A stretch of DNA of 64,000 nt, from NCBI GenBank assembly GCA_036172245.1, contig JAYWIR010000082.1, positions 1 through 64,000 of the forward strand, given 5' to 3'. The translations under genes were made by a program, and so were the position numbers. How positions within the stretch are numbered: position 1 is the stretch's first letter; every line of letters starts with the position of its first letter. The notes below the pieces were generated by a model. It did not search any database and was not told the origin of the DNA. It saw nothing but the letters and a program-made list of their open reading frames with translations. This DNA comes from Raillietiella orientalis (lineage: Eukaryota). Positions 14,600-63,395 of this stretch are shown in pieces.

Positions 14600-14960
14600 A
14601 CTTAAGAAGCGGCGAAGAAGGGGCGGGGGAGTGGAGAACGGCGCCAAGAAGCGGAGATGGTGTGCGGCGGCAGGAGGCAAAGGACAGCCCAGCAAATTGG
14701 TGAGCAGCCTGAGCGATGTCCAAGCGCCAGTTGGCGCCATGCCTCCACTCTTGCACAGGTGCTGGCTGTGGTGGAGGGAAGGGAATCTTCCGCTTGCCCG
14801 GAAGCAACGGATGTTGCCCTCGTCGCGAACAGGAGTCCAATGAGACCGAATCCATGTTATCAATGGAACCGTCAAAGTTTTTCAGGTCCGTCATTGATAC
14901 TCCATTTCAGACAAAAATGTTGGAATTGATTTTTCAATCATTGGTAATAAACAAATGTTA
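14600..14960 (-). mobile_element. L1/Tx1-like ORF2 fragment spanning the outer edge of the left palindrome arm
   Basis: IRCFRASGRFPSLHHSQHLCKSGGMAPTGAWT resembles IRCIPAIISYRFLKHNQPLCDSSGMEPPGAFT at 16.8 kb and carries a GGL/M-P-type motif seen after the RT domain of L1 ORF2. Confidence 0.5.
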
Positions 14961-16239
14961 TGTTTATCAACAAATGAGTGTACGCATTTATTTCTGATAC
15001 AACTTTTGTGCAAGTGCATTATGAGTTAGAAATAGGAAACATCAAAGCACTTGGAAGCCGCCTTTTCAGAACAGTCCAATGTATTGCATCTTCAGTTCTC
15101 ACTGGAGTCAAGTGATCAAAGGAAAGACATGAGATCTCTCAAGGGATGCGAAGGATCAACATACTTTCCGAAAGTTCAAAACAGACCTTTCCGACTGACC
15201 ACCTTATCAATAATAACAAATTCTTTCTTTCTTTCTGCTTTCCATCGAGAAACAGGAGCACGTTTTTCGTTCCTTCAGCTGGAGGAATTTCAACTGCTAT
15301 GCGATGTGGTCTTTTTTCTTCTGTTCATTATGCAACCCATCCTGCCACTGGAGAACCGAACCCACATAACAGGGAAACGAGTGCCAAAAAAACCCCTATA
15401 GTTCCAGACCACTGATTCCTTGTGTTAGTATGTCTCCAAACCTCAGCTTCGCGTGAAAAATGCAGTCCCTGTTGATCAATTTATATAGCGGAGGGTCCAA
15501 AGCCTCGTTTTCCTTGAGCAACAAATAAACAGGTAGAATGGAAAAAACGGAGAAGAAAGTTTCGTAACCATGGCAACGAGCAAACTGGAAAAAAAACACC
15601 CTCAGAGTGAACCACAGAACAAGAAATTATTTTTTTTTTTTCACGGCTTGTCTACTAAAAAACTGCAAAGAAAGGAAAAGAAAAAGAAAATGCTGATCCT
15701 GGTAAAAATAAAAAAAACTTTCCTCCACAAGCAGCACAGACACTTGAGAACCATTTTCCTCCTTCCGCTACTCTTGGGAAATTTCTTTTTTTTATTCCAG
15801 AATTGCATGTCACCGACGCATAACAGTACGTAATGCACCAAACATCCGAAGACAGCAGAGGGAAAAAATTTTCTCCAAGTTATTCAGTAACAACGGTGAC
15901 AACTTTCTTATCCATACATACACATAGAAGTGAACTCTTTACTTGCCAGTGTTATGCAAATTCCTTCAGAAAAGGGCGGTTACGTTGGGGTAGGTTTGAT
16001 ATCAGTTCAAAATGCAATTTCACAAAATGCTGAGGATTGCTTAGGAAAGCTTTGCGAAAAGCCAAAATATCATTTAGTTAAGGGACTGAATTCAAACCCA
16101 AGTCGAAATTCAACATTCCCTAAAAATACCAAACAGCAAGGTCTCGGAAACTCATGTACAGTCGCATATGGATGGCGATCGAGATCCTCATAGCTTTGGA
16201 GTTTCAGAGACAACTCTGTGCTCCCTCGTTTTATCCTCT

Positions 16240-17450
16240 TACATCCGCGCATCACCGTGTTCGCAGAGGTCCGTGAAGGTGAGGGTGGCCCATTTTTGCT
16301 TCCAACGTCCTACCATTCCCCGCGCTACGGAATGCGCCACCATGGAAACCAGAGTGCAGCGTTCGAAACAAGCTGCTTATGAAAAGACAAACTGCGGGTG
16401 GACAGGAATTGGCTGCTGGTTGACAGTCTGCCACGTCCAAGCATTTCTTTAGATTGCACCGGGGTGTTGCACAAGAGGTGCCATAAGCGCTCCCCGTGCC
16501 GCTTGCACGTTGGACCTGAATATCGATAGCAGCATTAGAAAACAAACACCTCCTTTCTTTCAGTTCTTCATCGTTCGCAGGAAACGTTTCGGATACATTT
16601 ACTTCGGATTTCTTCCGTACAATCCAGGTGCCTGACAGCCTTCCAATGGCATTGCGGCTGTTTACTTTGCGTCTTCTTATCAAACTTCCGCTGGCCAAAA
16701 TATGGAGCTAGTTCGTATTGAAAGGGTTTCGGATGGTGCAAAGGTTTCTCTCAAGGTCTCCTCCCGAATGCTACGTGGACATCATCCGTTGTATTCCTGC
16801 CATCATAAGCTACCGTTTTCTCAAGCACAACCAGCCCCTCTGCGACAGTTCAGGGATGGAGCCACCTGGTGCTTTCACACCGCGTACGTCTTGCTCACTG
16901 ACCTGCTCGTGGCTGATGTTGGTCATTTGCCTTCGCACAACATCCGCGCTTCTTATCGCCGTTGCCCACTCACTCCTTCCCCGCTTTCTGGGAACCCGTC
17001 CGCTCCTATCCGTTCCACCTCTTCCCCCCAATCGCCTCTGCCCTCGCATGCCACGAGCAGGGGATCGTGCACGCGGCGAACAGCGCCCACTCGAGCCTCT
17101 CCTACTTTCGCCTCCCGTTAGGACAGCTCCCAGTTCCCGAAATGCCAGCACACGCCTCCGAAACAACACGGCACCTTGCACCGCTCCAGCTCGTTGATGG
17201 TGCTCCTGCAGATGCTGCCCTGTCGCCGTTCAAAGTGACATACCCACTCGTCGTGCTCCGAGAAGCACTCCGGCGGACCATCGTAGCCGTACTGGCGCTC
17301 CATTCACTGCACGTTGTAGGAGGCGCCATCGCCGCACCAGCACGACGAGAACAAACCCCCATCCCAACTTGTTGGGGCACGCGGCTTCGACTTTGATGCG
17401 AGAAGTCTGCAAAATGCGACTTCCGCGTGCGTTCGTGCCAAAGAACTATG
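16240..17450 (+). mobile_element. Decayed L1/Tx1-like ORF2 fragment (mirror 59542-60752, minus strand)
   Basis: A degenerate GVRQG..SP-like segment (EVREGEGGP) at ~16270, plus nucleotide and peptide similarity to the 14.6-14.9 kb and 13.5-14.0 kb copies. Confidence 0.45.
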
Positions 17451-18599
17451 CACAAAACTGGTCAAGTACACAGGAAAACGGACTCAGGCAGGCTCGCGTG
17501 ACTGCGGGCAGACAGGCTGTTTCCCTCGATTGAAGAAGATTCCTTACCCAAGGAAAAAGAGCTTTCCAGCGATCTCCGATCGCCTCCATTCGCTGTCGCG
17601 GATACGAAGCGTCGAGCGTGCTCCTTTCCGTCCTAAACTCAGTGATGTTGCACTTTAACATGAAACTTAGCTGACGTAAAACTTGGAGATGCAAAATGAT
17701 TCAAAGGCAGATATTGAACGCACGCCGCCGCGATGCACATGCGAGCAAGGAGATGCTGCATCCGTGAGTACAAAATTGCTTATTTCATGCAGACAAGGTA
17801 CCTGGAGTTGCATCCAAGACGCATCACCCGCGAGCACTCGTTCATGTTCGGGAAGACTTCAGTTGAGCTGCAGGCTTTTCCTGACGGCAGGCATCATGCA
17901 GCGCCATTGGAGAGCAGTCCTTTGCATGATGCGTAGGACTCTTTTCAGGTAAATGAAATATACCCATACCAAGAACCTCGACTGGAACATGCGAGGAAAG
18001 CAGTAGATGTGAACACAAATCGCAACGTTGGCATGCTGCTGTTGAATCGCCATCACATTTGCATCATTGGACTCTCCAAAGAAACGCTCACCCCGTGCTA
18101 CTGGACGGTTCGGACGCAAGCAAGCGGTCACTGTGCTCAACCGCGTTTCAAATCCTTCGTAGACGATGATGTTGCGAGGTGTGAACGAGAAGCAGAATTG
18201 GAGGGAACTGGAAAGAGAAAGAACTAATTCCAAGTGACAAATAGAGGGCACACGATTGCTTATCTTTTTCCAGTCTGACTGGGAAGAAGGTGGACGTGCG
18301 ATGCTGCTGCGTTTCTTTTCGGACCGATTGACATGAGATGCACGGAAGGGGTCGAAGAAATAACAAGGCAGCTGCATGTACTTCGTACAAGTACCTCAAA
18401 TCGAAACGGACTGCATTCATAGCGCTGACCAACAGAGGTTTCCGTCCTTATCGCTTGCTGGCACTTGAGCAAGTGCCACGAAAATTTTAATCCTTGACTT
18501 GCTGCCAAGGAAGATGTTTGATAGAAAACCTGAGTACCCACAAAAGGCACTCTTGGTGAGGGAATTTCGACGGCGCCATTCCATCACCTAGACCAAGGG

Positions 18600-22789: not shown

Positions 22790-22915
22790 ATCCCTTCGAA
22801 TTTTGTTTGTCCGTTCCCATGCAAATGCGGATTCTGTTGCAGCAGTTGCGAGAAGAGTTATGGAAAGCACGGAACCAAAGTATGTCCTAGTCCAAGATGC
22901 AACAAAGAATGGGAA
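22790..22915 (+). pseudogene. Cys-rich RING-finger-like fragment (mirror 54077-54202)
   Basis: FPCKCGFCCSSCEKSYGKHGTKVCPSPRCNKEW has the spacing of the second half of a RING domain (CxC..CxxC..CPxxxC). Confidence 0.35.
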
Positions 22916-26470: not shown

Positions 26471-26722
26471 AGCCGGAGTAAGTTCTCGACGAAAGATGAC
26501 GTCACCGGAGTTGAGCTTTCCGCATCAGCTCAGCATCCGAGCTTCACGTGCCGCTTGCAGCTTGCGGTCGGCCGATTCATCGAGGTACTGCAGAATCGTG
26601 CAGCCACTCGTGCGAGAAAGATGGCTGTGGTGACAACCCGGACCGCATCCTTTCCCCAGTGGATTCGTCCGCCGTGCACGTGGTGGCAGAACGGCAGCCT
26701 GAGCGTTTATCGAGGGTGAAGT

Positions 26723-27710
26723 AGCTCGTTGATGCAGAAAAATCTCACAAAGTAGCTGCATTTCCAGTTAAGCATCATCTGCTGGTCTCCCCTAAGTATG
26801 TGGAACCGAAATCCCTGGTGTGCATTTCATCCGTTTGATAACTTTAGGGAACACAGGATTTTCACCCATCCGCATTTGAACAAGTGCGATGTTTTGTATC
26901 ATCGATTAAGTTCGTGTTCAAAGAACTTTCTCGTGTTCGATGCTTTGAGCATCAAGTCAAACGAGAGAGAATGAACATCGAGCACTTTTCGTCAAGAAAA
27001 GGAATGCGCGAATGCACTGAGATGCTTGCTGTTCTTCTTTACATTGAATGTTCTTCAAATTTGCTGTTGTTGATTCGGCCCTTACGGCAGCTGTGTAGTT
27101 AACAGTCATGCAAAGCAATTGAAATGCGGTCTGATGAAGAAGGCGAGCCTATGCATGGGAACGTCGTGTTAGTGACAGGTCAAATATATTGGTGCTCCAC
27201 AAGAGGATAGCATTTCTTTCGGACACTTGGCAGTATTGCAATGAAGAGCTCTTCACTTCATGCTCAGCGATTGAAAAGAGTGGGAAGTGACCAGCAGTGG
27301 GATTGTTCGTAGCATGAAGCATGCCCAGTCATCAATGGAAATTTTCATCTGCACAACATGGCACTCTTGAAAGATTTGGGAAAAAATCGAGAATTTTGGA
27401 AATGGATTGGCTTGAACTGCTGACCGGATGATTAGCAGCATGCTTCTGAATGTGCAGACGTGGAATCGGAAGGAAATCCATTAGTTTGTATTGGTCCATA
27501 GACTGAAGCATTCTTGGAAGGTCAAACGGAGTGATGGGACGATGAAACGGAGCGGTTTTACACGGTTTACCGCTCTGAATACAAAAATAAGTGTTTTGAG
27601 CATAACCGTTCATCTCCATTGATTGAGGCGACCAAGTTTTTTTTCAATCAGCTGGGTGCACAGAATCAAAGGTGGGCTACTCGGGTGGAATGAGGTGACA
27701 AGAAAAGATG
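26723..27710 (+). pseudogene. Older diverged duplicate of the DHODH exon 2 3' part plus ~0.9 kb of intron 2
   Basis: Colinear with 39374-40361 (GATGCAGAAAAATCTCACA...GTGACAAGAAAAGATG) with many substitutions. It has no other DHODH exons. Confidence 0.92.
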
Positions 27711-29054: not shown

Positions 29055-29740
29055 TAGAGCGCTTGTGGTTGCAACCACAGCAATTTCAAGTGGGGGATTC
29101 TCTCGTGAAAGGGAAATTCTCGTCGCTGATGAGCGGAAAAGCAGTGAAGAAGGCACTTGATTGTCTTTCATATAATGCAATAGAAATAGATGTTGATATC
29201 GACATTTTTGAAAAGCTGAAAAAAGCTGATTCTGATTTTGGTTTTATTGCTCTGCATGGATCTTCCGGAGAAGATGGCTGCATTCAAGGTTTATTATAGA
29301 TTTTAGGTATAAAATAGACACATTCAGGAGTCATGGCTTCGGCTGTCGCTATGAACGAAGCAATGTCCAAGCATGTATTTCAGTCCTCGGTATTGATACC
29401 CCAAAGGGTCACGTAATTACTCGAGAAGATATGCGAAAAGACAACATCAAAATTGGCTGTCCGTACGTCCTGATGACCGATCATTGAAGGCTCAAGCGTA
29501 GGACTTTTTTTTTTTTTAATTTTCTCGCTCGTCTCAGATTAAAAAAACGTGCTTGCTGTCAATCCAGCGCGTGACGCTGCAATTCAGGAAGCAGAATGGT
29601 CATCCACTTGAATGACAAGGGATTATAGAAGTTTGTGGATCGGGTGTAGAGTTACACACGGCTGCATTGCTAGATGTATCCGAATGGAAAACCAAAAAAG
29701 AATGGCAACTATGAATGCTAACGGCTAACCATGGATTAGA
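29055..29740 (+). pseudogene. ddl: Bacterial (Wolbachia-like) D-alanine--D-alanine ligase pseudogene, 3' truncated
   Basis: [96 protein letters not shown], with multiple stops and frameshifts. Confidence 0.92.
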
Positions 29741-31138: not shown

Positions 31139-33287
31139 CACCTTCGCATCGGAATCGCTTCGCAACCAATCGTCCAGCAGGGAACAACAACAACCTCTGC
31201 TTCCCGGAGACGGTGTTCGGGAAGGCGACGAAGGAGCGGGCCGGCTCCGAGGAGCTGACGAAAAGGGCACGTGAGGCACGGGCCGCGCCGCCAAGGAACA
31301 GCAACAGTCGAGAATCGACGCGCTCTTCCCGTCGCGGTCCAAGGGAGAGCGCCCTTGAAGTAAGGAGCAGCACCACTCCCAGCGGAGCTCCGACGGGCTT
31401 CAAGGTCATCCAGCGAGCAGTGCAGGTGCTGCGCCCACGGTCATCGAATGAGTGGTGTGGGCGCGCGCGCTTCCGACTTTGAGGCCTGCCGTCGCGGTGC
31501 TCTGCCACGCGCGAGACCTTGCGTATGGCCGGCGCATGGAAGAGGCGCGCGCGCGCTCGTGTCGCGAGGATGCACCAGGCTTTCTCCGAATCCTGCCGGG
31601 AAGGGAGTCTGCCGAACAAGTTCGCTGGATGGAGTAGACCTCCAGAAGGTAGCCTTCCCAGAGTTCCTCGCAGTTCCCAATCCTGAGTGTGCGCTCTCAG
31701 GAGTTAGATCGTCTGCTAGTGGAGACACCAGTCGTTCGGAAGGTGCCGGGGGTTGGCCGGAGGTCGAGGGCGCCAGCACCTACCGGTTAGCTCGCGTGGA
31801 TGGTCGGAGAGCGACCGATGGGAGCAAGCAGGCGCGTTCCGCCACCCGCGATTGGAGGTGCTTGCGTACGTGCCCGGCCAGTCAGCTGCTGAAGTCCGCG
31901 TTCGCACGGAAGAGTCCCCGCCGCGGAACCAAGCCGTCCCCGCTGTCGGCCCCCACGGACGACGGGGAAGACCTTTCCGCTAGGCCGCAGAGTGGCGTGC
32001 TTTCCACCCCGCTCAAGTTTGACGACTTTCAACCGTCCTGCTTCGGAGGGGAGGGGGAACGGAAGCCTGTGGGAAGCCAGCCATCCCTTCAGGGACGTTT
32101 GGCGGAGGGAAATGGACATCCAGGCATTTCTGGAAGGACGATCGGGTTCGATCTTCCGCCTGGAGTCTGCGAGAGCGCTCATCCTCGCTGCCGGACTCAG
32201 CCGACACAATCGCTTCCGCAGCGCATCCCCCGCGTGGACTACGCGTGCTCGTCTGAATAAAGGCAGTCGCTTGAAAAGGTCACGAAAAAAACAAAGTCGG
32301 ATGGATGTGTTGCACCAGAACAGAATGGAAACAGCAAGAAAATTGGCTTGCCACGTTCCGCCCAAATTGCAACATTCCAAAATTCACCCAAATTTTCACG
32401 CATTTCCATTCCAAATTCACCCAAAGTTCGACGCACGCTAAGCACGATGGATGGATGATGCCCGGCTACGAGCGCATGACTGTAAACTTGTTTCCCATGC
32501 TACCGAACAGGAAATTCGCTGGTCTTGTAAACAGCCCTTCTCCTCCAGTGCCGGAAACTGACGCGAAGAAAATAGAACATAAACTCCACAATGCAGTGAT
32601 GAAATCTTCTCTGATGCTTGCCAAGCAAGTAGGTGATTCTCAATTCAAAGAGCACAGGTGAAACAAAACAGGCGACGCGACAGCAAGAATCACGATGCAA
32701 TCAACTACGATATGCGTTCGAACCGATTTCGCACTGCCAACCATGTGCTGGTTGGCTCGCTTGCCACTGTGGGGTCACCCAATAGAAATAAGGTTAATGT
32801 GAATAAAGGCACATGGATGGCATGCCTACACATGTTCCCGTGTTCCATTTTGTGACCAGTGCAAACCGCAGCTGATCAAAAGTATGGACTCCTGAAACTC
32901 CAAGCTCGTGACATTCTTCAGCAACACCCTACACCATTGGTTGCAAATTTTTCCCAGTACGAGAGGGTCACTGTACATAACCTTTTACTAACTTTCACAG
33001 GAATCAAAAAATACTCTATTTCTGAACAACTGGATTCCAAAATTGATGCTTGGGGAGATGAGAGACTCGAGAATCATACGGCAGAGAGCTCCCTCTCAAA
33101 GCTCTGCTCAGCAAGAGCACGAGTGAATTTTTGGTGAATCTGCAAGTCACCCATGCAAGGGAAATCATGACTACCAACTTGAAGCACAAGTCATGATGCA
33201 CGTTAATCAGGAAAACTTGGCATACAGCGTTGCAGTCCATCCATTTCTGTTCTACCCACTCCGGTGCACGTTAAAAAGGAAGGTGGA

Positions 33288-34885
33288 TCAATAACGACGT
33301 CGTTTAATAATGTCCGGTTTCCACGTTATGGGGTGAGTCTCTTCAGTCTAAGGAAGAATGCTGACATGCAAACAATCGATGCAGATTGACTTACGGCAGT
33401 TTCATCCTCTCGGAAGATTTTGATGGTTTTATCGGCATCTGTTGTTATCAGCCTGCTGTTACTCAAATCAAATGTGAGTGAGAAAATTCCAGCTTCACTG
33501 TCCATGGACCCAGGCTGCACAGGGGCCTGGAGTCTTTGGAAATTGTATCCTGTGCGCCAATCCCAAAAATGAAGGGTGCCATTATCACCACCAGATACCA
33601 AAACACCATCGCTATTGACAGTCAGACAGTTAATGATGGCATTGTGCCCAACCAGATTTTGAATAAATCGTCCTTCGGGGCATTTCCACTGTTTGATGTT
33701 ATCAGGAGAAGCGGATGCAAACATGTACAGACTAGGATGCAAAATCACAGAACGAACGCTTTTCTTGTGGTTGGTCAGCGTTGTACGACATTTGCCTGCT
33801 GATAAATCCCACAGCCGGATAGTGCAGTCATGGCTTCCCGTGATGACTTCTGGTTCAGTTGCTTGGCAAACTACATCAGCAACTGTGTTAGTGTGGCCTG
33901 TCAGAGTATGTATATTGGCTTTGGTACGCATATCCCAAACACGGGCTACGGAGTCACGTCCACAAGTGACCAGCACATCAATGGTGGGATGCAAGTCAAT
34001 GCCATACACAGCACTCAAGTGACCATGATAATGGCGAATGACCTTATTGTACTCTAAATCCCAGCATTTGACCTGTCGATCTTCTCCACAACTGAACAAG
34101 TATGGCTGCCTTGGGCTGACAACAAGGCCTCGCACTGTGCTCACATGACCAGTTAAGGATAACTTGAGCTTCCCACTAGCTAGATCCCAGATCTAGCCAA
34201 ATCAACATTCTTGATGCATTCCAACACTCTTAAACAGGCTTACCTTGATAACTCGATCTGCAGCACCAGTGCAAAACCATTTGTTTTGTGGCTCCATAGC
34301 CACACAGCGAACCCATCCCAGATGACCACTGATTACTCTATGAAGCTTCCAAGGAGGATGCCAGGTAGGTTTGGGCATAGCAAGTGGTTTTCTAGGAACT
34401 ACAGCAGATGGGCTGGTCATAACAGTGGACTGAGGTGCTGGTGATTTTGGCACTCCTACTGGGGCAGGGACCAATGCTGTTTCGCTTGAAACATCATTTT
34501 CTGAGAAACAATGAAACAAAGTAAAGGTGCTCTCCCCCCCACTCCCACCCGCATCTATGCACACCAACCTTTCAGCTGTTCTTCCTCAACAACATGGACT
34601 TTTTTTTCTTTAGACACTAGATGGCGTACTGCCTGGTAGAAATCTCGCGTCTTGCATGCTAATCGCAAACTGTGCCTAAAGAACACCACTTTAGAGTGCA
34701 GGCAGATAATTCCTGAAATATTACCCTTTAGGATCAAGAGGAGCAAGGTTGCCTTGATCAGACAGAAACATGTCATGGCTCCTCTTCAGTGATCGAAACA
34801 CCAACGTGTGCACAGAATGTCTCTGCACATCCTAAAAAATACTTAACACACAGAATTGTCAGCAACTTGCACTGACCTCCCCCAT
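33288..34885 (-). CDS. PLRG1: Pleiotropic regulator 1 / Prp46 WD40 splicing factor, left-arm copy (6 exons)
   Basis: Mirror of 42111-43708 with identical ORF translations. Confidence 0.95.
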
Positions 34886-35074: not shown

Positions 35075-37653
35075 TCATTTCATCCCTGACTGCAAGGAGA
35101 GATCCACATCAACACCAACAGCATCTTCCAAACTTACGAAGCCATCAGCACTATAATGAACAAACAACAAGTAATCCAACATTCGCACAATGAAGCATTA
35201 AACCTCAAAAGTGCTTCGAGCTCTTGTTTAATTCGTGGTACCACAGGAGGACCATAGAATGCTAAAGCTGTATACAGCTGAATTAATGATGCCCCAGCTC
35301 GGATTTTTTCGTAAGCATCTCGTCCACTACTAACGCCTCCCACACCTATGATCGGTATTCTGCCTTGTGTAAGGAGATACATATCGGAAATCATCTTTGT
35401 AGACATCTCTCTCAATGGGGGTCCACTGAGACCTCCTTCCTCTTTTGAAAACCCATCCCGAAGATCAGGCCGTTCTACTGTTGTGTTACAAATCACCAAA
35501 CCATCCACCTGCACTACAGTGGCAGATCCGCTACATCAATGCTTACATACCGAAAGCTCTTTACACACTTGAGCAATCTCCTCTCTTTCATGAGGCTTGA
35601 GATCAGGAGCTAGTTTTAGTAAAATAGGCAGATTCTTGTGCCCAGATATGCTGTTCCTGGTTTCCAAAACAACAGTTAGCAATTCTCGTAATTTGCCTTG
35701 CAATTGAAAAGCACGCAAGCCCACAGTATTTGGACTAAATGAGAACTCGAAATCGATCCCACACTATTCCACTTACCTAGAAACATTGATTACAATATAA
35801 TCAGCAACATTCGAGAATAATTTCACCCCAGATATATAGTCTTCAACTGGAAAAACACTATTCTTGTTGCACCCCAAATTCACGCCAATAATTCCCTTAT
35901 AGCCAGAGCCACGTAATTTCATCAATCGCCTGTACACCTTCAAGTACCCATCACTATTGAAGCCATATCTACATATGCTAATCAAAAGAATGCAAATGAA
36001 TGGAAATTGTTACCTATTAATAATTGCCTTATCTTTGATCAGACGAAAAACTCGTGGGGGAGATGAACCCGGTTGAGGATGCATCGTAACAGAACCAACC
36101 TCCACCCAACCAAAGCCTAGCTTTATCAATCCGGTGCAGCATTCCCCTTGTTTGTCAAAACCTGCTGCTATTCCAATCGGGTTAGCAAACTGCAAACCCC
36201 AAACACATGTATTCTGGAACACAAGCAACTACCATAACCACACTGATGCAAAAAACAGATTGACCCAAACATGCAGCAACACCTGACAAATAGCATTATT
36301 GTGCTACTCCTTACAATATGAAGCACACCAAAGGAAAGAAGGTTGAGCATTCCGAATGCTGTGACAGCACAAATGTCAAAGAAAAGGGAAAAGGGTTGCA
36401 TGTTCCATGAACTTTTTGCCATGAATATACGCAGCAAGATGCACAGGATTTTCTATCCAGTGCAAGTAATCAATACAGGAATAAAATAAAGGAATTTTAT
36501 ATTCTTCAGAATCGATATTGAATTCCACTTCATGAGACCTTCATACATTCCAACTTCTTTAGCATGGATCAAACTCAGTCTGATCAACTCACTCCAATTG
36601 GCAAGGTACAACATCTTGCCACTTGCATCATCGGCATCTTTTCTTGTCACAATTCCACCTGAGTACCTCACCTTTCAATTTCTGCACTCAGATGATCAAA
36701 AAAAAAACTTCGTCACTTCAAGCATTGGAGATGAACAGTTATGCTCAAAACACTTATTTTTGTTTTCAGAGTGGTAAACCGTGTAAAACCGCTCCGTTTC
36801 ATCATCCCATCACTCCGTTTGACCTTCCAAGAATGCTTCAGTCTATGGACCTATACAAACTAATGCATTTCCTTTCAATTCCATGTCTGCACATTCAGAA
36901 GCATGCTGCTAATCATCCTGTCAGCAGTTCAAGCCAATCCATTTCCAAAATTCTCCATATTTTTCCAAATCTTTCAAGAGTGCCATGTTGTGCAGATGAA
37001 AATTTCCATTGATGACTGGGCATGCTTCATGCTACGAACAATCCCACTGTTGGTCACTTCCCACTCTTTTCAATCGCTGAGCATGAAGTGAAGAGCTCTT
37101 CATTGCAATACTGCCGAGTGTCCGAAAGAAATGCTATCCTCTTGTGGAGCACCAATATATTTGGCCTGTCACTAACACGACGTTCCCATGCATAGGCTCG
37201 CCTTCTTCATCAGACCGCATTTCAATAGGTTTGCATGACTGTTAACTACACAGCTGCCGTAAGGGCCGAATCAACAACAACAAATTTGAAGAACATTCAA
37301 TGTAAAGAAGAACAGCAAGCATCTCAGTGCATTCGCGCATTCCTTTTCTTGACGAAAAATGCTCGATGCTCATTCTCTCTCGTTTGACTTGATGCTCAAA
37401 GCATCGAACACGAGAAAGTTCTTTGAACACGAACTTAATCGATGATACAAAACATCGCACTTGTTCAAATGCGGATGGGTGAAAATCCTGTGTTCCCTAA
37501 AGTTATCAAACGGATGAAATACACACCAGGGATTTCGGATCCAAATACTTGGGGGAAAACAGCAGATGATGCTTAACTAGAAATACAGCTAACTTGTGAG
37601 ATTTTTCTGCATCAGTGAGCTGGATGAACGGCATAAGCAACCTGGTATAAAAT
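35075..37653 (-). pseudogene. DHODH: 5'-truncated DHODH copy lacking exon 1 and the start of exon 2; downstream frame intact, in-frame ATG at 37634
   Basis: Mirror of 39342-41921. Homology stops at the arm end inside exon 2. One substitution at 37615 changes Ile to Thr. Confidence 0.85.
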
Positions 37654-39341
37654 TTTTGCTCTTAAGAGATGCACACAGATGGATGACATTAATTTCAGAC
37701 CCACACCAAAGTGCAAGGGACTACAGGAAATAATGTCATCCATCTGAGAAATAAAAAATCGCGCACTCCTTAAAAAAGAAATGTTCATCTGTTTCTTTAT
37801 TTGATTTGAAATCCATAATTACAATATGCACTCTTTATAATAATCTTTTCAACATATAATTTTTAGATACAATTGGTGTGACAAACAAGTTTAGTAGGGT
37901 GTATAAAACGCTTACGTTTCGATATTGCCGAAGAAGAAGAGCATGAGCTAATTGGACAATCTGAATTCCCAAGAACTCTGAATGGACATTTAGCACGCTA
38001 GACACAGCAGAACACCAAAAATGAGCTGTAACATAATAACATGTCAATTAGTGCGCCTCGTTATTTTCGCATCTGATGGGTAGTCAGGATTCTCAAGAAT
38101 CGCGCTTTTTTCAATGGATTCATACATTCATACAGGATTCACTTCTAGCCTGTGTTTTCTATCTTTTCTCATTTTATATAGTTATCGTTTATTTGTTTTT
38201 CCTGGAATGCATTGTGATCAGTTATATATTATTTTGAGCATTGTTCGCAGATTTCTGGATTTGCTATTTTTGTTTAGATCTTAGATGTTTTTTTTCTTCT
38301 GTTTTTGCTTACATTCCTTTTCTGAAGGAACTTCAGTATTCTCCTATGCTTCCAGCTCCATGTCTTTACGATTACACGATTTATTTCAGACATTACTTAT
38401 TTATAATCCTGCCATTTCTTATGGAGTTTTCAGCACTGAAGCTCCTTATTTTGAAGTTAGCAGCATTCTCTAACAGTTTCTTTATAAGTATAATTAGTTA
38501 TCAAGAAACAGTTGCAGAACTGTATCGAAAACTATTACATTACATGCATTCGTAGGAGATTATACGAACAATGTTGCATTATTTTCCATGAAGTTGAAAT
38601 CCATTCTCCAACTAATTCTGATTGCTTGACTCCAAGTCAAGAAATTCCACTCAAGGTTTCGAAAAACATTTTAATCTGTCTTTCTTTGCTTACAATAAAA
38701 CAAATATCAAAGATTCTATCGAGAGTTGCTGTTGTTTAATATGATATCGTAAGACATTTGTGATAATCACACTCTATGAAAGATCCTGATGAAGTATGAT
38801 TTTTGAAGACACATTTGTAAGACGATCTACTACTCAAGCAAAAGGTGCTTATGTGATGATGACTTAAAATTTGTAGTAGAAATAAAGTGGTTGGGTTATC
38901 ATGGAATCAAGTACGAACATAAACTACACTTTGGGCCAGAGTACTCTAGGTATTCAAGCGAAACTTAATGCTCGGTTCTCGTCGAGTGCCCTGCAGTTTC
39001 ATTGATCACGTGATTGAGTTGGTGATCCTCTGAGTAGATGAGATCTGTTGTGAGTCGGTTTCCGTTTAAGAGCCAGTTGATAAGTTTTCGAAAAAGTTAC
39101 GGCCAGATGATTGTGATGTACATCTGCAGAATAACTCCATGAGTACATAAATGTTAGAAATGTTTCGTGGTAAATTGTCTTTCTGTGGTAACTTGATTTA
39201 TGAGTATTTTAATGTAAGATTATGCATATAGTTCATGCTCTCTTATCTGAATAATTTCTAGAAGCCAAAAACATGGTGCATTGTTGTGACTGGCGGTGTC
39301 TTGACTTTATCTGGCTTATGCTTTTATAGAGGAGAGGAGAC
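37654..39341. other. Unique AT-rich palindrome spacer (1688 bp) containing the DHODH upstream region and 5' end
   Basis: No mirror symmetry here. The DHODH N-terminal coding sequence is at its right edge. Confidence 0.9.
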
Positions 39342-41921
39342 ATTTTATACCAGGTTGCTTATGCCGTTCATCCAGCTCATTGATGCAGAAAAATCTCACA
39401 AGTTAGCTGTATTTCTAGTTAAGCATCATCTGCTGTTTTCCCCCAAGTATTTGGATCCGAAATCCCTGGTGTGTATTTCATCCGTTTGATAACTTTAGGG
39501 AACACAGGATTTTCACCCATCCGCATTTGAACAAGTGCGATGTTTTGTATCATCGATTAAGTTCGTGTTCAAAGAACTTTCTCGTGTTCGATGCTTTGAG
39601 CATCAAGTCAAACGAGAGAGAATGAGCATCGAGCATTTTTCGTCAAGAAAAGGAATGCGCGAATGCACTGAGATGCTTGCTGTTCTTCTTTACATTGAAT
39701 GTTCTTCAAATTTGTTGTTGTTGATTCGGCCCTTACGGCAGCTGTGTAGTTAACAGTCATGCAAACCTATTGAAATGCGGTCTGATGAAGAAGGCGAGCC
39801 TATGCATGGGAACGTCGTGTTAGTGACAGGCCAAATATATTGGTGCTCCACAAGAGGATAGCATTTCTTTCGGACACTCGGCAGTATTGCAATGAAGAGC
39901 TCTTCACTTCATGCTCAGCGATTGAAAAGAGTGGGAAGTGACCAACAGTGGGATTGTTCGTAGCATGAAGCATGCCCAGTCATCAATGGAAATTTTCATC
40001 TGCACAACATGGCACTCTTGAAAGATTTGGAAAAATATGGAGAATTTTGGAAATGGATTGGCTTGAACTGCTGACAGGATGATTAGCAGCATGCTTCTGA
40101 ATGTGCAGACATGGAATTGAAAGGAAATGCATTAGTTTGTATAGGTCCATAGACTGAAGCATTCTTGGAAGGTCAAACGGAGTGATGGGATGATGAAACG
40201 GAGCGGTTTTACACGGTTTACCACTCTGAAAACAAAAATAAGTGTTTTGAGCATAACTGTTCATCTCCAATGCTTGAAGTGACGAAGTTTTTTTTTTTGA
40301 TCATCTGAGTGCAGAAATTGAAAGGTGAGGTACTCAGGTGGAATTGTGACAAGAAAAGATGCCGATGATGCAAGTGGCAAGATGTTGTACCTTGCCAATT
40401 GGAGTGAGTTGATCAGACTGAGTTTGATCCATGCTAAAGAAGTTGGAATGTATGAAGGTCTCATGAAGTGGAATTCAATATCGATTCTGAAGAATATAAA
40501 ATTCCTTTATTTTATTCCTGTATTGATTACTTGCACTGGATAGAAAATCCTGTGCATCTTGCTGCGTATATTCATGGCAAAAAGTTCATGGAACATGCAA
40601 CCCTTTTCCCTTTTCTTTGACATTTGTGCTGTCACAGCATTCGGAATGCTCAACCTTCTTTCCTTTGGTGTGCTTCATATTGTAAGGAGTAGCACAATAA
40701 TGCTATTTGTCAGGTGTTGCTGCATGTTTGGGTCAATCTGTTTTTTGCATCAGTGTGGTTATGGTAGTTGCTTGTGTTCCAGAATACATGTGTTTGGGGT
40801 TTGCAGTTTGCTAACCCGATTGGAATAGCAGCAGGTTTTGACAAACAAGGGGAATGCTGCACCGGATTGATAAAGCTAGGCTTTGGTTGGGTGGAGGTTG
40901 GTTCTGTTACGATGCATCCTCAACCGGGTTCATCTCCCCCACGAGTTTTTCGTCTGATCAAAGATAAGGCAATTATTAATAGGTAACAATTTCCATTCAT
41001 TTGCATTCTTTTGATTAGCATATGTAGATATGGCTTCAATAGTGATGGGTACTTGAAGGTGTACAGGCGATTGATGAAATTACGTGGCTCTGGCTATAAG
41101 GGAATTATTGGCGTGAATTTGGGGTGCAACAAGAATAGTGTTTTTCCAGTTGAAGACTATATATCTGGGGTGAAATTATTCTCGAATGTTGCTGATTATA
41201 TTGTAATCAATGTTTCTAGGTAAGTGGAATAGTGTGGGATCGATTTCGAGTTCTCATTTAGTCCAAATACTGTGGGCTTGCGTGCTTTTCAATTGCAAGG
41301 CAAATTACGAGAATTGCTAACTGTTGTTTTGGAAACCAGGAACAGCATATCTGGGCACAAGAATCTGCCTATTTTACTAAAACTAGCTCCTGATCTCAAG
41401 CCTCATGAAAGAGAGGAGATTGCTCAAGTGTGTAAAGAGCTTTCGGTATGTAAGCATTGATGTAGCGGATCTGCCACTGTAGTGCAGGTGGATGGTTTGG
41501 TGATTTGTAACACAACAGTAGAACGGCCTGATCTTCGGGATGGGTTTTCAAAAGAGGAAGGAGGTCTCAGTGGACCCCCATTGAGAGAGATGTCTACAAA
41601 GATGATTTCCGATATGTATCTCCTTACACAAGGCAGAATACCGATCATAGGTGTGGGAGGCGTTAGTAGTGGACGAGATGCTTACGAAAAAATCCGAGCT
41701 GGGGCATCATTAATTCAGCTGTATACAGCTTTAGCATTCTATGGTCCTCCTGTGGTACCACGAATTAAACAAGAGCTCGAAGCACTTTTGAGGTTTAATG
41801 CTTCATTGTGCGAATGTTGGATTACTTGTTGTTTGTTCATTATAGTGCTGATGGCTTCGTAAGTTTGGAAGATGCTGTTGGTGTTGATGTGGATCTCTCC
41901 TTGCAGTCAGGGATGAAATGA
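39151..41921 (+). CDS. DHODH: Dihydroorotate dehydrogenase (quinone), mitochondrial, class 2. Exons 39151-39213 (tentative), 39262-39468, 40783-40982, 41028-41219, 41262-41445, 41488-41792, 41846-41921; ~408 aa
   Basis: Motifs [56 protein letters not shown] and [10 protein letters not shown], with an N-terminal hydrophobic anchor. All introns are GT-AG and restore the frame. Confidence 0.95.
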
Positions 41922-42110: not shown

Positions 42111-43708
42111 ATGGGGGAGGTCAGTGCAAGTTGCTGACAATTCTGTGTGTTAAGTATTTTTTAGGATGTGCAGAGACATTCTGTGCACACGTTGGTGTTT
42201 CGATCACTGAAGAGGAGCCATGACATGTTTCTGTCTGATCAAGGCAACCTTGCTCCTCTTGATCCTAAAGGGTAATATTTCAGGAATTATCTGCCTGCAC
42301 TCTAAAGTGGTGTTCTTTAGGCACAGTTTGCGATTAGCATGCAAGACGCGAGATTTCTACCAGGCAGTACGCCATCTAGTGTCTAAAGAAAAAAAAGTCC
42401 ATGTTGTTGAGGAAGAACAGCTGAAAGGTTGGTGTGCATAGATGCGGGTGGGAGTGGGGGGGAGAGCACCTTTACTTTGTTTCATTGTTTCTCAGAAAAT
42501 GATGTTTCAAGCGAAACAGCATTGGTCCCTGCCCCAGTAGGAGTGCCAAAATCACCAGCACCTCAGTCCACTGTTATGACCAGCCCATCTGCTGTAGTTC
42601 CTAGAAAACCACTTGCTATGCCCAAACCTACCTGGCATCCTCCTTGGAAGCTTCATAGAGTAATCAGTGGTCATCTGGGATGGGTTCGCTGTGTGGCTAT
42701 GGAGCCACAAAACAAATGGTTTTGCACTGGTGCTGCAGATCGAGTTATCAAGGTAAGCCTGTTTAAGAGTGTTGGAATGCATCAAGAATGTTGATTTGGC
42801 TAGATCTGGGATCTAGCTAGTGGGAAGCTCAAGTTATCCTTAACTGGTCATGTGAGCACAGTGCGAGGCCTTGTTGTCAGCCCAAGGCAGCCATACTTGT
42901 TCAGTTGTGGAGAAGATCGACAGGTCAAATGCTGGGATTTAGAGTACAATAAGGTCATTCGCCATTATCATGGTCACTTGAGTGCTGTGTATGGCATTGA
43001 CTTGCATCCCACCATTGATGTGCTGGTCACTTGTGGACGTGACTCCGTAGCCCGTGTTTGGGATATGCGTACCAAAGCCAATATACATACTCTGACAGGC
43101 CACACTAACACAGTTGCTGATGTAGTTTGCCAAGCAACTGAACCAGAAGTCATCACGGGAAGCCATGACTGCACTATCCGGCTGTGGGATTTATCAGCAG
43201 GCAAATGTCGTACAACGCTGACCAACCACAAGAAAAGCGTTCGTTCTGTGATTTTGCATCCTAGTCTGTACATGTTTGCATCCGCTTCTCCTGATAACAT
43301 CAAACAGTGGAAATGCCCCGAAGGACGATTTATTCAAAATCTGGTTGGGCACAATGCCATCATTAACTGTCTGACTGTCAATAGCGATGGTGTTTTGGTA
43401 TCTGGTGGTGATAATGGCACCCTTCATTTTTGGGATTGGCGCACAGGATACAATTTCCAAAGACTCCAGGCCCCTGTGCAGCCTGGGTCCATGGACAGTG
43501 AAGCTGGAATTTTCTCACTCACATTTGATTTGAGTAACAGCAGGCTGATAACAACAGATGCCGATAAAACCATCAAAATCTTCCGAGAGGATGAAACTGC
43601 CGTAAGTCAATCTGCATCGATTGTTTGCATGTCAGCATTCTTCCTTAGACTGAAGAGACTCACCCCATAACGTGGAAACCGGACATTATTAAACGACGTC
43701 GTTATTGA
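42111..43708 (+). CDS. PLRG1: Pleiotropic regulator 1 / Prp46. Exons 42111-42119, 42165-42271, 42321-42427, 42496-42752, 42804-43601, 43649-43708
   Basis: [26 protein letters not shown]-terminus, [26 protein letters not shown]40 repeats, [12 protein letters not shown], and C-terminus [23 protein letters not shown] introns of 45-68 bp. Confidence 0.97.
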
Positions 43709-49281: not shown

Positions 49282-50269
49282 CATCTTTTCTTGTCACCTC
49301 ATTCCACCCGAGTAGCCCACCTTTGATTCTGTGCACCCAGCTGATTGAAAAAAAACTTGGTCGCCTCAATCAATGGAGATGAACGGTTATGCTCAAAACA
49401 CTTATTTTTGTATTCAGAGCGGTAAACCGTGTAAAACCGCTCCGTTTCATCGTCCCATCACTCCGTTTGACCTTCCAAGAATGCTTCAGTCTATGGACCA
49501 ATACAAACTAATGGATTTCCTTCCGATTCCACGTCTGCACATTCAGAAGCATGCTGCTAATCATCCGGTCAGCAGTTCAAGCCAATCCATTTCCAAAATT
49601 CTCGATTTTTTCCCAAATCTTTCAAGAGTGCCATGTTGTGCAGATGAAAATTTCCATTGATGACTGGGCATGCTTCATGCTACGAACAATCCCACTGCTG
49701 GTCACTTCCCACTCTTTTCAATCGCTGAGCATGAAGTGAAGAGCTCTTCATTGCAATACTGCCAAGTGTCCGAAAGAAATGCTATCCTCTTGTGGAGCAC
49801 CAATATATTTGACCTGTCACTAACACGACGTTCCCATGCATAGGCTCGCCTTCTTCATCAGACCGCATTTCAATTGCTTTGCATGACTGTTAACTACACA
49901 GCTGCCGTAAGGGCCGAATCAACAACAGCAAATTTGAAGAACATTCAATGTAAAGAAGAACAGCAAGCATCTCAGTGCATTCGCGCATTCCTTTTCTTGA
50001 CGAAAAGTGCTCGATGTTCATTCTCTCTCGTTTGACTTGATGCTCAAAGCATCGAACACGAGAAAGTTCTTTGAACACGAACTTAATCGATGATACAAAA
50101 CATCGCACTTGTTCAAATGCGGATGGGTGAAAATCCTGTGTTCCCTAAAGTTATCAAACGGATGAAATGCACACCAGGGATTTCGGTTCCACATACTTAG
50201 GGGAGACCAGCAGATGATGCTTAACTGGAAATGCAGCTACTTTGTGAGATTTTTCTGCATCAACGAGCT
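49282..50269 (-). pseudogene. Mirror copy of the DHODH exon 2/intron 2 duplicate
   Basis: Reverse complement of 26723-27710. Confidence 0.92.
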
Positions 50270-60600: not shown

Positions 60601-62099
60601 TTTGTCTTTTCATAAGCAGCTTGTTTCGAACGCTGCACTCTGGTTTCCATGGTGGCGCATTCCGTAGCGCGGGGAATGGTAGGACGTTGGAAGCAAAAAT
60701 GGGCCACCCTCACCTTCACGGACCTCTGCGAACACGGTGATGCGCGGATGTAAGAGGATAAAACGAGGGAGCACAGAGTTGTCTCTGAAACTCCAAAGCT
60801 ATGAGGATCTCGATCGCCATCCATATGCGACTGTACATGAGTTTCCGAGACCTTGCTGTTTGGTATTTTTAGGGAATGTTGAATTTCGACTTGGGTTTGA
60901 ATTCAGTCCCTTAACTAAATGATATTTTGGCTTTTCGCAAAGCTTTCCTAAGCAATCCTCAGCATTTTGTGAAATTGCATTTTGAACTGATATCAAACCT
61001 ACCCCAACGTAACCGCCCTTTTCTGAAGGAATTTGCATAACACTGGCAAGTAAAGAGTTCACTTCTATGTGTATGTATGGATAAGAAAGTTGTCACCGTT
61101 GTTACTGAATAACTTGGAGAAAATTTTTTCCCTCTGCTGTCTTCGGATGTTTGGTGCATTACGTACTGTTATGCGTCGGTGACATGCAATTCTGGAATAA
61201 AAAAAAGAAATTTCCCAAGAGTAGCGGAAGGAGGAAAATGGTTCTCAAGTGTCTGTGCTGCTTGTGGAGGAAAGTTTTTTTTATTTTTACCAGGATCAGC
61301 ATTTTCTTTTTCTTTTCCTTTCTTTGCAGTTTTTTAGTAGACAAGCCGTGAAAAAAAAAAAATAATTTCTTGTTCTGTGGTTCACTCTGAGGGTGTTTTT
61401 TTTCCAGTTTGCTCGTTGCCATGGTTACGAAACTTTCTTCTCCGTTTTTTCCATTCTACCTGTTTATTTGTTGCTCAAGGAAAACGAGGCTTTGGACCCT
61501 CCGCTATATAAATTGATCAACAGGGACTGCATTTTTCACGCGAAGCTGAGGTTTGGAGACATACTAACACAAGGAATCAGTGGTCTGGAACTATAGGGGT
61601 TTTTTTGGCACTCGTTTCCCTGTTATGTGGGTTCGGTTCTCCAGTGGCAGGATGGGTTGCATAATGAACAGAAGAAAAAAGACCACATCGCATAGCAGTT
61701 GAAATTCCTCCAGCTGAAGGAACGAAAAACGTGCTCCTGTTTCTCGATGGAAAGCAGAAAGAAAGAAAGAATTTGTTATTATTGATAAGGTGGTCAGTCG
61801 GAAAGGTCTGTTTTGAACTTTCGGAAAGTATGTTGATCCTTCGCATCCCTTGAGAGATCTCATGTCTTTCCTTTGATCACTTGACTCCAGTGAGAACTGA
61901 AGATGCAATACATTGGACTGTTCTGAAAAGGCGGCTTCCAAGTGCTTTGATGTTTCCTATTTCTAACTCATAATGCACTTGCACAAAAGTTGTATCAGAA
62001 ATAAATGCGTACACTCATTTGTTGATAAACATAACATTTGTTTATTACCAATGATTGAAAAATCAATTCCAACATTTTTGTCTGAAATGGAGTATCAAT

Positions 62100-63395
62100 G
62101 ACGGACCTGAAAAACTTTGACGGTTCCATTGATAACATGGATTCGGTCTCATTGGACTCCTGTTCGCGACGAGGGCAACATCCGTTGCTTCCGGGCAAGC
62201 GGAAGATTCCCTTCCCTCCACCACAGCCAGCACCTGTGCAAGAGTGGAGGCATGGCGCCAACTGGCGCTTGGACATCGCTCAGGCTGCTCACCAATTTGC
62301 TGGGCTTTCCTTTGCCTCATCCCTTGGTTCGGTTCTCCCTCCGGACGGAAAATCCACTGCGGAAAAAGACCACTAGGGCGGAGCTCATCTGCATGCCCGC
62401 CTGGCTCGAGAGGCTTTTCTGTCACAAGGAAGTCATCGAGGCGATTCTGCATGACACATCCATCCGCAGAGTCGCCGACTGGGACAGACTGAAGCATCGT
62501 ATCCATTTGTTCTGCAACATGCAGTTCGGGGACAAGAGACTGAGGCAGGAAGCGTTCCGGGAGCTAAACATCCAAGATGGCTCCCTCTCAAAGTACTATG
62601 AACAGTACGAGAGTCGGTACGTCTTCCAAAACGTAAAAGGGGAAGTCAGCGCGCTGGTGAAGAAGAATCTGGCAACAGACATCTTCTGCATCTAGTACGG
62701 CGGCTACAGCCGGCACACGTCGGAAGACAGAGCACGCCTGTCTCACTGGACACAGGGGAATGTGGATGCCCGATGCGTCGAGTGCGGTGAAAGGGAAACC
62801 TTCCCGTATCTCACCCTCGAGTGTGTCGCCCTGGTTGGACTCTGGAGTAGAATGGCCCCAATCCTCCATCTTCCAGTAGGCGACCCTAAGGAAATTTACC
62901 GTCGCCTCTTTCTGCGTAACAGCCTGCGCCCCGCTGCGTCTCTAGCAGTCCTCTTCTGTGTGCGCTGCATCGTGCAAAGGTGGAACGCGAGAATAAGAGG
63001 CCAAAGATTCAGGGACGCCATCCACTGGACGACGATCTCTTTGGAGACGGCGACAAGGTGGCGTCTACCTCCAATGCTAAAAGCAGAACTTGGCTGTATC
63101 CTGAACAGGATGCGGAGGACCGACCCAGGCGCCCCACTCCCTATTCCTTCCCTGCCCCCCACTCCCTCATGGAACTGTTTCCCTCCCCGTTATTTCTCTT
63201 TTTGATTCTTTTTGTTACAGTTTCCCCTCCCCCTGCGCCTCGGGAAAGGACCTAGCCGGTCTCGGCACCGGCTCCCGAAACGTCTGCCAGCGTGGGAAAA
63301 CCAAGTGTTTTCCCACAAAAAACTATTTACAGACTTTATTAACTAATTTTGTAGGAATTAGATTAATAAATGCCCCGGCATATCCGGGTGACAAA
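62100..63395 (+). mobile_element. L1/Tx1-like ORF2 C-terminus with zinc knuckle, plus 3' UTR; best-preserved copy, probably chimeric at ~62306-62318
   Basis: CVECGERETFPYLTLEC matches the CxxC..ET..H..C knuckle of L1-clade ORF2. One in-frame stop at 62693-62695. AATAAA at 63365 is followed by a terminal hairpin. Confidence 0.8.

Follow-up and report, generated by a model that had tools for sequence, protein, structure and literature searches.

The window (the whole stretch of 64,000 nt analysed here, without any N) contains a palindrome of ~47.6 kb. Using a repeat search and blastn, the left arm (14674-37653, minus strand, 22,980 nt) was aligned to the right arm (62318-39342, that is 39342-62318 on the plus strand, 22,977 nt) in one inverted alignment of 22,981 columns with 99.970% identity. 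The blastn comparison of the left half with the reverse complement of the right half gave 2 mismatches and 3 gap openings. An inverted match of 23 kb cannot have arisen by chance. Between the arms lies a spacer of 1,688 nt with 34.6% GC (37654-39341, plus strand) that is single-copy in the window: a whole-window self-blast with word size 11 detected no similarity of the spacer to anything else in the window, and its ORFs gave no Pfam match. The ~47.6-kb palindrome with near-identical 23-kb arms and a 1688-bp spacer described in an earlier note was recovered by blastn at the same coordinates. The two flanks differ. Outside the left arm, a unique stretch of 3.2 kb gives way to a satellite of more than 11 kb, which flips orientation with a 14-nt loop. 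Apart from the palindrome and the satellite, the self-blast found only a 990-bp inverted repeat in each arm (94.6% identity) with its mirror, and a 38-nt hairpin at 11646-11683.

Both arms carry a complete gene for pleiotropic regulator 1 (PLRG1), an essential splicing factor. The right copy (42111-43708, plus strand) is the exact reverse complement of the left one (33288-34885, minus strand), with 6 exons coding for 445 amino acids and five introns of 45-68 nt, all GT..AG. The product shares 332 of its 445 residues with P0001. With both copies intact, spliced and identical, the doubled PLRG1 dosage proposed in the earlier note is correct at the level of DNA, to which we confine it.

The second gene is DHODH, involved in pyrimidine synthesis. 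Its right copy (39262-41921, plus strand) codes for 387 amino acids, to which a candidate upstream ATG exon is added, and is intact, with exons at 39262-39468, 40783-40982, 41028-41219, 41262-41445, 41488-41792 and 41846-41921, a single terminal stop and GT..AG borders at every intron. The protein is identical to oyster DHODH at 205 of 387 residues, colinear from oyster residue 14, and covers positions 4-291 of Pfam PF01180. The left copy (35075-37653, minus strand) is truncated at its 5' end: a remnant of exon 2 (37653-37527) is followed by exons 3-7 identical to those of the right copy, while the promoter, the ATG exon and the codons of the transmembrane helix are missing, and the frame reaches a stop two codons outside the arm boundary. 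Altogether PLRG1 is present at the locus in two complete copies, and DHODH in an intact and a 5'-truncated one. The "bacterial relics" that had been noticed in the arms are mostly a misreading; profile matches and gene model identify DHODH as a metazoan gene, spliced and mitochondrial. Bacterial-type signal is limited to one D-Ala-D-Ala-ligase-like match of 27 residues, which barely passes the Pfam cut-off (35.3 versus 34.6 bits).

The 990-bp repeat turned out to be an older partial duplicate of DHODH. Its source, segment B (39374-40361, plus strand; left-arm mirror 36635-37621), comprises the last 95 nt of exon 2 and 893 nt of the long intron, and the older copy A (49282-50269, minus strand; left-arm mirror 26723-27710) is 94.6% identical to it. 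The start of A corresponds to a point only 32 nt inside the boundary of the young palindrome. This duplicate is the sole dispersed repeat of the arm and replaces the "decayed TE" previously suggested; among arm ORFs of at least 45 aa no transposon family was matched in Pfam. A transposon with very long terminal inverted repeats was also considered for the whole structure and rejected: the flanking bases (..GGCAG and ATCCC..) form no direct repeat, arm and spacer ORFs of at least 45 aa contain no mobility family, and the inner boundary falls inside a host exon.

Polarity of the arms

Exon 2, the first large coding exon of DHODH, crosses the boundary between spacer and right arm in frame. On the spacer side of this boundary lie 80 nt of the exon, a candidate ATG exon (39151/39160-39213) and presumably also the promoter. 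The first 130 amino acids of 120 DHODH homologues were searched against the exon-2 region of both copies. At the right copy 77 of the 120 homologues gave an exon-2 HSP (best E 5e-17) and all 77 reached at least 15 nt into the spacer, whereas the left copy was matched by 40 of 120 and none of these 40 HSPs did so. Because the exon crosses the right boundary in frame and is cut at the left one, the right arm, contiguous with the spacer through exon 2, is the parental one and the left arm its derived, inverted copy, as both the alignment and the truncation of DHODH indicate. It follows that spacer, right arm and right flank are parental and that only two junctions are new. The first (J1, 14673|14674) puts the left flank against the outer end of the new copy, its novelty following from the polarity of the arms, and at the second (J2, 37653|37654), where DHODH exon 2 is cut, the inner end of that copy meets the left edge of the spacer.

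Differences between the arms

A full listing of the differences returned exactly the five given in the earlier note. Two are substitutions, C/A at 14685 (partner 62307), 11 nt inside J1, and G/A at 37615 (partner 39380), 38 nt inside J2. At 37615 the derived base is in the new copy; T is common to the right arm and the older paralogue A, and the residue of homologues at this place is hydrophobic. The other three are indels: T13 in the left versus T11 in the right arm at 29505-29506, a 2-nt difference in a dinucleotide run, (GC)6 versus (GC)5, at 31545-31546, and A10 in the left versus 11 in the right at 36698-36707 (partner 40298), inside the long DHODH intron. They occupy two of the three homopolymers of at least 10 nt and the longest of the two dinucleotide runs, the tracts most prone to consensus error, and so may not be real. 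Neither arm has an insertion of its own, and the arm interior (~22.9 kb) has 0 substitutions. If substitutions were placed uniformly, both would lie no more than 40 nt from an arm end with a probability of 1.2e-5, the 40-nt threshold being post hoc.

From the sequence we lean towards a real and recent inverted duplication, produced by fold-back or template switching. This was one of three readings put forward in the earlier note, which had missed the polarity of the arms. The arm interiors would then be identical mainly because little time has elapsed, and the inferred age has a 95% upper bound of ~13,000-66,000 generations for assumed mutation rates of 5e-9 to 1e-9. Substitutions so close to the junctions fit error-prone repair synthesis near junctions (PMC4352052). 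However, the same clustering at the ends is also expected from gene conversion that spares the edges, which leaves the youth of the palindrome unproven.

An older palindrome, whose arms are kept alike by frequent arm-to-arm gene conversion from which the last tens of bases escape, is a possible if doubtful account. It would explain why both substitutions lie within the terminal 40 nt, and the structure falls within the operational definition of primate X palindromes, arms >8 kb with identity >99% (PMC8327919). If the mutation rate is assumed to be 3e-9, then with d = 2/22,980 = 8.7e-5 the steady state c = 2mu/d (PMC8600007) yields ~7e-5 conversions per base and generation, comparable in order of magnitude with the value for human P6. 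The single polarised change runs from AT to GC, and the inner 1 kb of the arm has a GC of 0.415, above the 0.34-0.36 of the spacer. On the other hand, the outer 1 kb shows no enrichment (0.427 versus 0.537 and 0.556 in the flanks), the CpG depletion of the gene bodies is undisturbed and the truncated DHODH has no lesion besides the one junction-proximal change. Nor is there the decayed homology past the boundaries that an eroding edge would leave. Identity ends sharply at both arm ends, and in local alignments beyond the outer boundary the observed score was reached by 12/500 shuffles for 100 nt and 161/500 for 300 nt, the corresponding values for the inner boundary being 266/500 and 184/500. 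One borderline 21-nt match was seen beyond the arm boundaries, out of register. Under a recent duplication, too, gene conversion between the arms probably acts, yet the data can be explained without it.

Origin of the inverted copy

The third reading is that the left arm is absent from the genome, and that chimeric fold-back molecules or reads made the assembler use one locus twice; whole-genome amplification of a small animal could be the source of such reads. We consider this unlikely. An artefact too would give essentially 100% identity, and the indels do lie in error-prone runs. Multiple displacement amplification often produces inverted chimeric reads, and the inverted duplications of an amplified-DNA assembly vanished once the reads were corrected (PMC6218980, PMC13265396). 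Palindromes present in the first assembly of Adineta vaga were likewise missing from the chromosome-level one (PMC8494291). But an artefact would require that a gap-free contig had been joined wrongly twice, at separate points 23 kb from each other. Beyond the left arm come unique DNA and satellite with no mirror of the right flank, and the centre is an asymmetric spacer of 1,688 bp with the 5' end of a gene, without adaptor or zero-length turn. A GTT-repeat motif, which we take to be adaptor-like, occurs only at 31183/45800, far from the centre. The signature of a missed adaptor or fold-back chimeric read, a turn with adaptor or with no spacer and symmetry to the contig end, was looked for here and was absent. 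Besides, the two substitutions adjoin precisely the pair of junctions under suspicion, a placement not expected if the same reads had been used twice, and the older diverged inverted duplications at the locus cannot be artefacts. These older natural inverted events (the A/B duplicate at 94.6% and the flip of the satellite) count for a real duplication.

If the inverted duplication is real and recent, we infer that the parental order was left flank, spacer, 23-kb segment and right flank, the contiguity of left flank and spacer being part of the reconstruction. The segment would have contained DHODH from codon 27 of exon 2 onward, then PLRG1 and a non-coding stretch of ~18.6 kb. In the region upstream of DHODH a fork may have stalled or the DNA broken, and the repair may have proceeded by synthesis with fold-back or template switching. 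If it was fold-back, a 3' end lying at the spacer's left edge would prime within DHODH exon 2, 1.7 kb off on the same strand, copy 23 kb outward and then join the other broken end. The product would be left flank, inverted copy, spacer, original and right flank, with the spacer as the former loop of the fold-back and the promoterless, 5'-truncated DHODH head to head with the intact gene. In register, only six of the first nine positions at the spacer ends are complementary, and the terminal base stays unpaired; any microhomology would be absorbed into the arms.

This is similar to the fold-back inverted duplications described in humans (Hermetz et al. 2014, PMC3907307), where an inverted copy lies beside the original with a short spacer, as also in yeast foldback inversions (PMC7467729), breakpoints are sharp, and only one of the arms is newly synthesised, the other being parental. 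The human spacers are single-copy and measure 766-70,466 bp (median 3,428 bp), a range that includes the 1,688 bp found here, single-copy within the window. However, the human cases usually end in a terminal deletion or translocation, while the duplication described here is interstitial and measures 23 kb. No distal terminal deletion, telomere, translocation or ring junction was found in the window, the new copy joining the 3.2 kb of unique DNA and then the satellite. Template-switch rearrangements (FoSTeS/MMBIR, DUP-TRP/INV-DUP, ODIRA; PMC4352052, PMC11293582, PMC10766183, PMC10766186) share with our locus an inverted extra copy and two novel junctions, as well as point changes near the junctions and older inverted repeats at the locus (PMC4352052). 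Typically they are inverted triplications flanked by duplications; here there is no hybrid repeat at the junction. An inverted triplication of the DUP-TRP/INV-DUP or ODIRA kind was discarded, as the window contains only two copies and neither flank is related to the arm.

With the primate X/Y palindromes (PMC8327919, PMC8600007), the structure has in common arms >8 kb (99.97% identity here), a short spacer, protein-coding genes and an arm divergence compatible with a balance of mutation and conversion (PMC8600007). Marks of the primate palindromes also include conservation across species, conversion tracts, sex linkage and testis-biased gene families. The structure differs from them in that PLRG1 and DHODH are housekeeping genes, and also in the truncation of one gene by the arm boundary and the lack of GC enrichment of the arms against the outer flanks. 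Palindromes are also described in assemblies of the parthenogenetic invertebrates Adineta vaga and Folsomia candida (PMC7953838, PMC8494291), with mirrored genes and the same doubt about assembly. The palindromes there are multi-gene collinear blocks detected by synteny, and those of A. vaga were traced to erroneous scaffolding of haplotypes (PMC8494291), in contrast to the 99.97% nucleotide identity in gap-free sequence found here. Real or artefact, the structure is of an already well-known kind. The rearrangement is of an ordinary type, and the host sequence is arthropod-like.

Implications of the locus

A broader scenario, to which we would give little credence, is that the early coding exons of DHODH are a recurrent point of breakage or template switching from which nested inverted duplications have arisen on two or more occasions (the 990-bp one, now 5.4% diverged, and the 23-kb one, with breakpoints 32 nt apart), and that the young palindrome is also being actively homogenised by conversion that spares the last tens of bases. 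If that were true, it would be a conversion-maintained palindrome with housekeeping genes in an arthropod, beyond the setting of sex chromosomes and testis genes in which such palindromes are known. Were the palindrome an artefact, a public assembly would contain 23 kb of spurious duplication and one PLRG1 gene too many. If it is real, the animal has a second full copy of PLRG1, and its working DHODH gene faces, head to head, a fragment of DHODH that has no promoter. It would also be a young inverted duplication in which parental and derived copy can be told apart by sequence alone, both junctions are resolved to the base, the only base changes lie beside the junctions and an older event took place at nearly the same breakpoint. 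As such, it would offer a natural example of how a palindrome is built by fold-back or template-switch repair and of the onset of gene conversion.

Geometry of the palindrome and gene content of its arms

A repeat search of the window returned four contiguous inverted blocks, each 100% complementary. By BLASTN they form a single inverted alignment of 14674-37653 against 62318-39342 (22,981 columns, 99.970% identity) with 2 mismatches and 3 gap openings. The spacer between the arms measures 1,688 bp (37654-39341) and the window is free of N. This bears out the palindrome with near-identical arms described in the earlier note, and the differences between the arms are exactly the five listed there: substitutions at 14685 (partner 62307) and 37615 (partner 39380), a T13 versus T11 length difference at 29505, a 2-nt (GC)n indel at 31545 and an A10 versus A11 length difference at 36698. 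The length differences strike two of the three arm homopolymers of at least 10 nt and the longer of the two dinucleotide runs of at least 5 units. Homopolymer and dinucleotide tracts are the most prone to slippage in vivo and also to consensus error. Apart from the palindrome, a sensitive self-comparison of the whole window gave just a 990-bp inverted repeat in each arm (94.6% identity) and a 38-nt self-complementary hairpin (11646-11683, 94.7% identity) in the unique left flank. No look-alike of the spacer was found elsewhere in the window, and an inverted triplication was not seen. A transposon with giant inverted ends was also rejected, there being no target-site duplication, no mobility gene among the ORFs of at least 45 aa and a boundary that falls inside a host exon.

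Pfam scans of stop-to-stop ORFs of at least 45 aa on both strands (left flank, left arm, spacer and right flank) found two genes, PLRG1 and DHODH, which in the left arm lie on the minus strand. Their exon coordinates were read off the sequence and then checked by script. The large PLRG1 exon matches WD40 propeller families, with pleiotropic regulator 1 as best database match (76-84% identity); among the 120 matches listed every named one is from an arthropod and none is near-identical. An exact 38-nt word of PLRG1 had no match in metagenome contigs. The gene model comprises 6 exons encoding 445 aa, of which 332 are identical to P0001, the protein used for comparison, and its five GT..AG introns of 45-68 nt rule out a processed retrocopy, indicating a normal spliced gene. 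The doubling of PLRG1 noticed earlier holds as a gene count, since both copies are full-length and the right one (42111-43708) is an exact mirror of the left. The stop codon of DHODH and the start codon of PLRG1 are only ~190 nt apart (35075-34885, and mirror), so that the PLRG1 promoter must be located within the 3' end of DHODH or close to it, a region that both arms contain.

A reading of DHODH as a bacterial relic does not fit: the gene is spliced and its closest matches are animal mitochondrial DHODH, so it is a host gene. Four of its exon ORFs span positions 4-291 of the 291 of Pfam PF01180, and the last large coding exon (35137-35535) is 63-74% identical to its best matches, which come from vertebrates, oyster, amphioxus and a damselfly.

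The remainder of the arm is poor in recognizable sequence. Between 14.7 and 33 kb the Pfam scans gave one family match only, 27 residues of the D-Ala-D-Ala ligase N-terminal domain PF01820 at ~29216-29296 (+), mirrored in the right arm (E 1.9e-8; score 35.3 bits, cut-off 34.6). No further ddl pieces appeared around 29.2 kb among plus-strand ORFs of at least 25 aa at E up to 0.01, and the match could be a bacterial-type relic in an advanced state of decay or simply marginal. In the GC-rich blocks (16.7-26.7 and 30.7-32.7 kb, and mirrors) the GC content is 56-64% and the CpG observed/expected ratio ~1.0-1.15; over PLRG1 and DHODH this ratio is 0.41-0.48. The blocks contain many long ORFs in all frames that look like chance frames, with no Pfam match, no GC periodicity by codon position and translations rich in R, A, G and P. 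Rfam at gathering thresholds and ARAGORN gave no matches.

Arm polarity

The two ends of the spacer differ in their relation to DHODH. By TBLASTN with DHODH homologues, the N-terminal coding exon starts within the spacer at 39262, where there is a splice acceptor (TTTCTAG|), crosses 39341|39342 in frame into the right arm and ends at 39468. Its first 80 nt, all spacer, code for hydrophobic N-terminal residues, which align with animal DHODH in the membrane-anchor region. The right-hand model (39262-39468, 40783-40982, 41028-41219, 41262-41445, 41488-41792 and 41846-41921) encodes 387 aa with one stop, the terminal one; its introns of 1314, 45, 42, 42 and 53 nt are all GT..AG, and 205 of the 387 residues are identical to those of an oyster DHODH, with which it is colinear from oyster residue 14. 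A plausible candidate for the ATG exon is 39151/39160-39213, followed by a GTAAGA donor and an intron of 48 nt. On the left, the same frame hits a stop two codons beyond the arm boundary, and no DHODH-like sequence was found upstream of the boundary of that copy.

We compared the first 130 residues of 120 DHODH homologues with both copies. The right copy gave an exon-2 HSP with 77 of the 120 (median start 39268, best E 5e-17), and all 77 reach at least 15 nt into the spacer; the left copy gave one with 40 of the 120, and none of these 40 does so. This asymmetry, the in-frame exon and the stop in the left copy show together that the parental sequence runs unbroken through spacer, right arm and right flank, and that the inverted copy in the left arm is the derived one. 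The sole junctions made by the event are then J1, between left flank and left arm (14673|14674), and J2, between left arm and spacer (37653|37654), while 39341|39342 and 62318|62319 merely delimit the copied segment.

Older rearrangements at the same locus

The 990-bp repeat is present in the right arm as copy B (39374-40361, mirrored at 36635-37621) and, inverted, as copy A (49282-50269, mirrored at 26723-27710). Copy B consists of the final 95 nt of DHODH exon 2 and 893 nt from the start of the long intron. A repeat that begins within an exon and runs on into the intron is not a demonstrable TE, and what had been taken for a decayed element is DHODH sequence. Copy A retains QLVDAEKSHK.. at the matching stretch of the DHODH reading and is an older inverted partial duplicate of the gene, 5.4% diverged, which must predate the palindrome because it is present in both arms. 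The point matching its start lies just 32 nt within the boundary of the young palindrome; with breakpoints uniform over an arm, and with the comparison made post hoc, the chance of two lying within 32 nt is ~2x32/22,980 = 0.003. A 13-nt polypurine run (AGAGGAGAGGAGA) in exon 2 (39328-39340) stops a single base short of the palindrome boundary, and the older duplicate has its breakpoint ~34 nt from the run; we note it and claim no role for it.

Upstream lie two arrays of one satellite, with 278-bp units at 1-8452 (30 copies, 95% matches) and, in the opposite orientation, older 277-bp units at 8509-11437 (79% matches). The flip, at 8453-8466, surrounds a 14-nt loop, next to which ~23 nt show nearly perfect complementarity; it resembles a fold-back junction and is older than the palindrome, from which it lies 6 kb away. 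Taken together, the DHODH duplicate and the satellite flip indicate a neighbourhood repeatedly subject to inverted rearrangement.

Origin and age of the palindrome

The two substitutions lie 11 nt from J1 (14685) and 38 nt from J2 (37615), and the ~22.9-kb interior of the arms has none. Under uniform placement the chance that both fall at most 40 nt from an arm end, a threshold picked post hoc, is 1.2e-5. At 37615 the right arm and copy A share a T and the left copy has C, which places the derived state in the new copy, beside a new junction; the change replaces Ile by Thr, and four homologues carry F, L, V and V at this residue. According to passages of PMC4352052 (citing Carvalho 2013), replicative repair synthesis of this type is error-prone and point changes are gained together with the rearrangement, and substitutions beside the junctions fit this.

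As in fold-back inverted duplications, the inverted copy is parted from its template by a short single-copy stretch. At human disomy-inversion junctions, passages of PMC3907307 describe a spacer in 21 of 21 sequenced cases (766-70,466 bp, median 3,428 bp) and inverted microhomology of 2-8 bp in 13 of the 21. Here the spacer would be the former fold-back loop and, since the copy is interstitial, the event must have ended with a further join, to the opposite side of the break. A replicative event with two switches (FoSTeS/MMBIR type) would give the identical product. The spacer ends pair in register at 6 of the first 9 positions, microhomology as such being scorable only against the unrearranged sequence.

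With 0 interior substitutions, the 95% upper bound on the time since formation or last homogenisation is ~13,000-66,000 generations (assumed mutation rates of 5e-9 to 1e-9). The same identity could belong to an older palindrome whose arms are kept alike by gene conversion. The structure satisfies the operational definition of a large palindrome found in part of PMC8327919 (arms >8 kb, identity >99%), and the arm divergence would fit the mutation/conversion balance c = 2mu/d, as formulated in a section of PMC8600007. Several features give no sign of a long history: the outer boundaries show no GC step-up (0.427 inside against 0.537 and 0.556 outside), decayed homology is absent past the arm ends, and neither arm has insertions of its own. 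On balance we lean towards youth. The GC of the inner arm is 0.415 against 0.34-0.36 in the spacer. No convincing leftover homology was found past the arm boundaries; a 21-nt out-of-register match just beyond the outer ones (14628-14648 against 62322-62342, 17 of 21 identical in reverse complement) has a score reached by 12 of 500 shuffles and could be fortuitous or a vestige of earlier homology. Conversion between the arms is probably occurring, though it is not required, and an old palindrome maintained by it seems to us unlikely.

A false assembly has precedents. In the portions of PMC6218980 and PMC13265396 that treat them, inverted chimeric reads are common after whole-genome amplification, and in an assembly of amplified DNA inverted duplications were no longer detected once the reads had been corrected; passages of PMC8494291 (see also PMC7953838) likewise describe Adineta vaga palindromes as not recovered in the chromosome-level assembly. 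A missed adaptor or a fold-back with zero spacer is ruled out by the 1,688-bp gene-bearing spacer. Further points against an artefact are that two false junctions would be needed, separated by 23 kb of sequence without gaps; that the left flank does not mirror the right one; that the spacer is long and asymmetric and bears the 5' end of a gene; that substitutions adjoin both suspect junctions; and that the locus also has older, diverged inverted duplications. We regard an assembly artefact as slightly less probable than long maintenance by conversion. Among the three readings left side by side in the earlier note, the other two thus rank lower, and on balance the sequence features point to a real and recent inverted duplication by fold-back or template switching.

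The palindrome belongs to an already known kind of structure, to which our analysis adds the polarity of the arms, the changes close to the junctions and a breakpoint common to an older event. Given this polarity, the locus holds two full PLRG1 genes and one intact DHODH only, the second DHODH being a predicted promoterless, 5'-truncated copy head to head with the intact gene.
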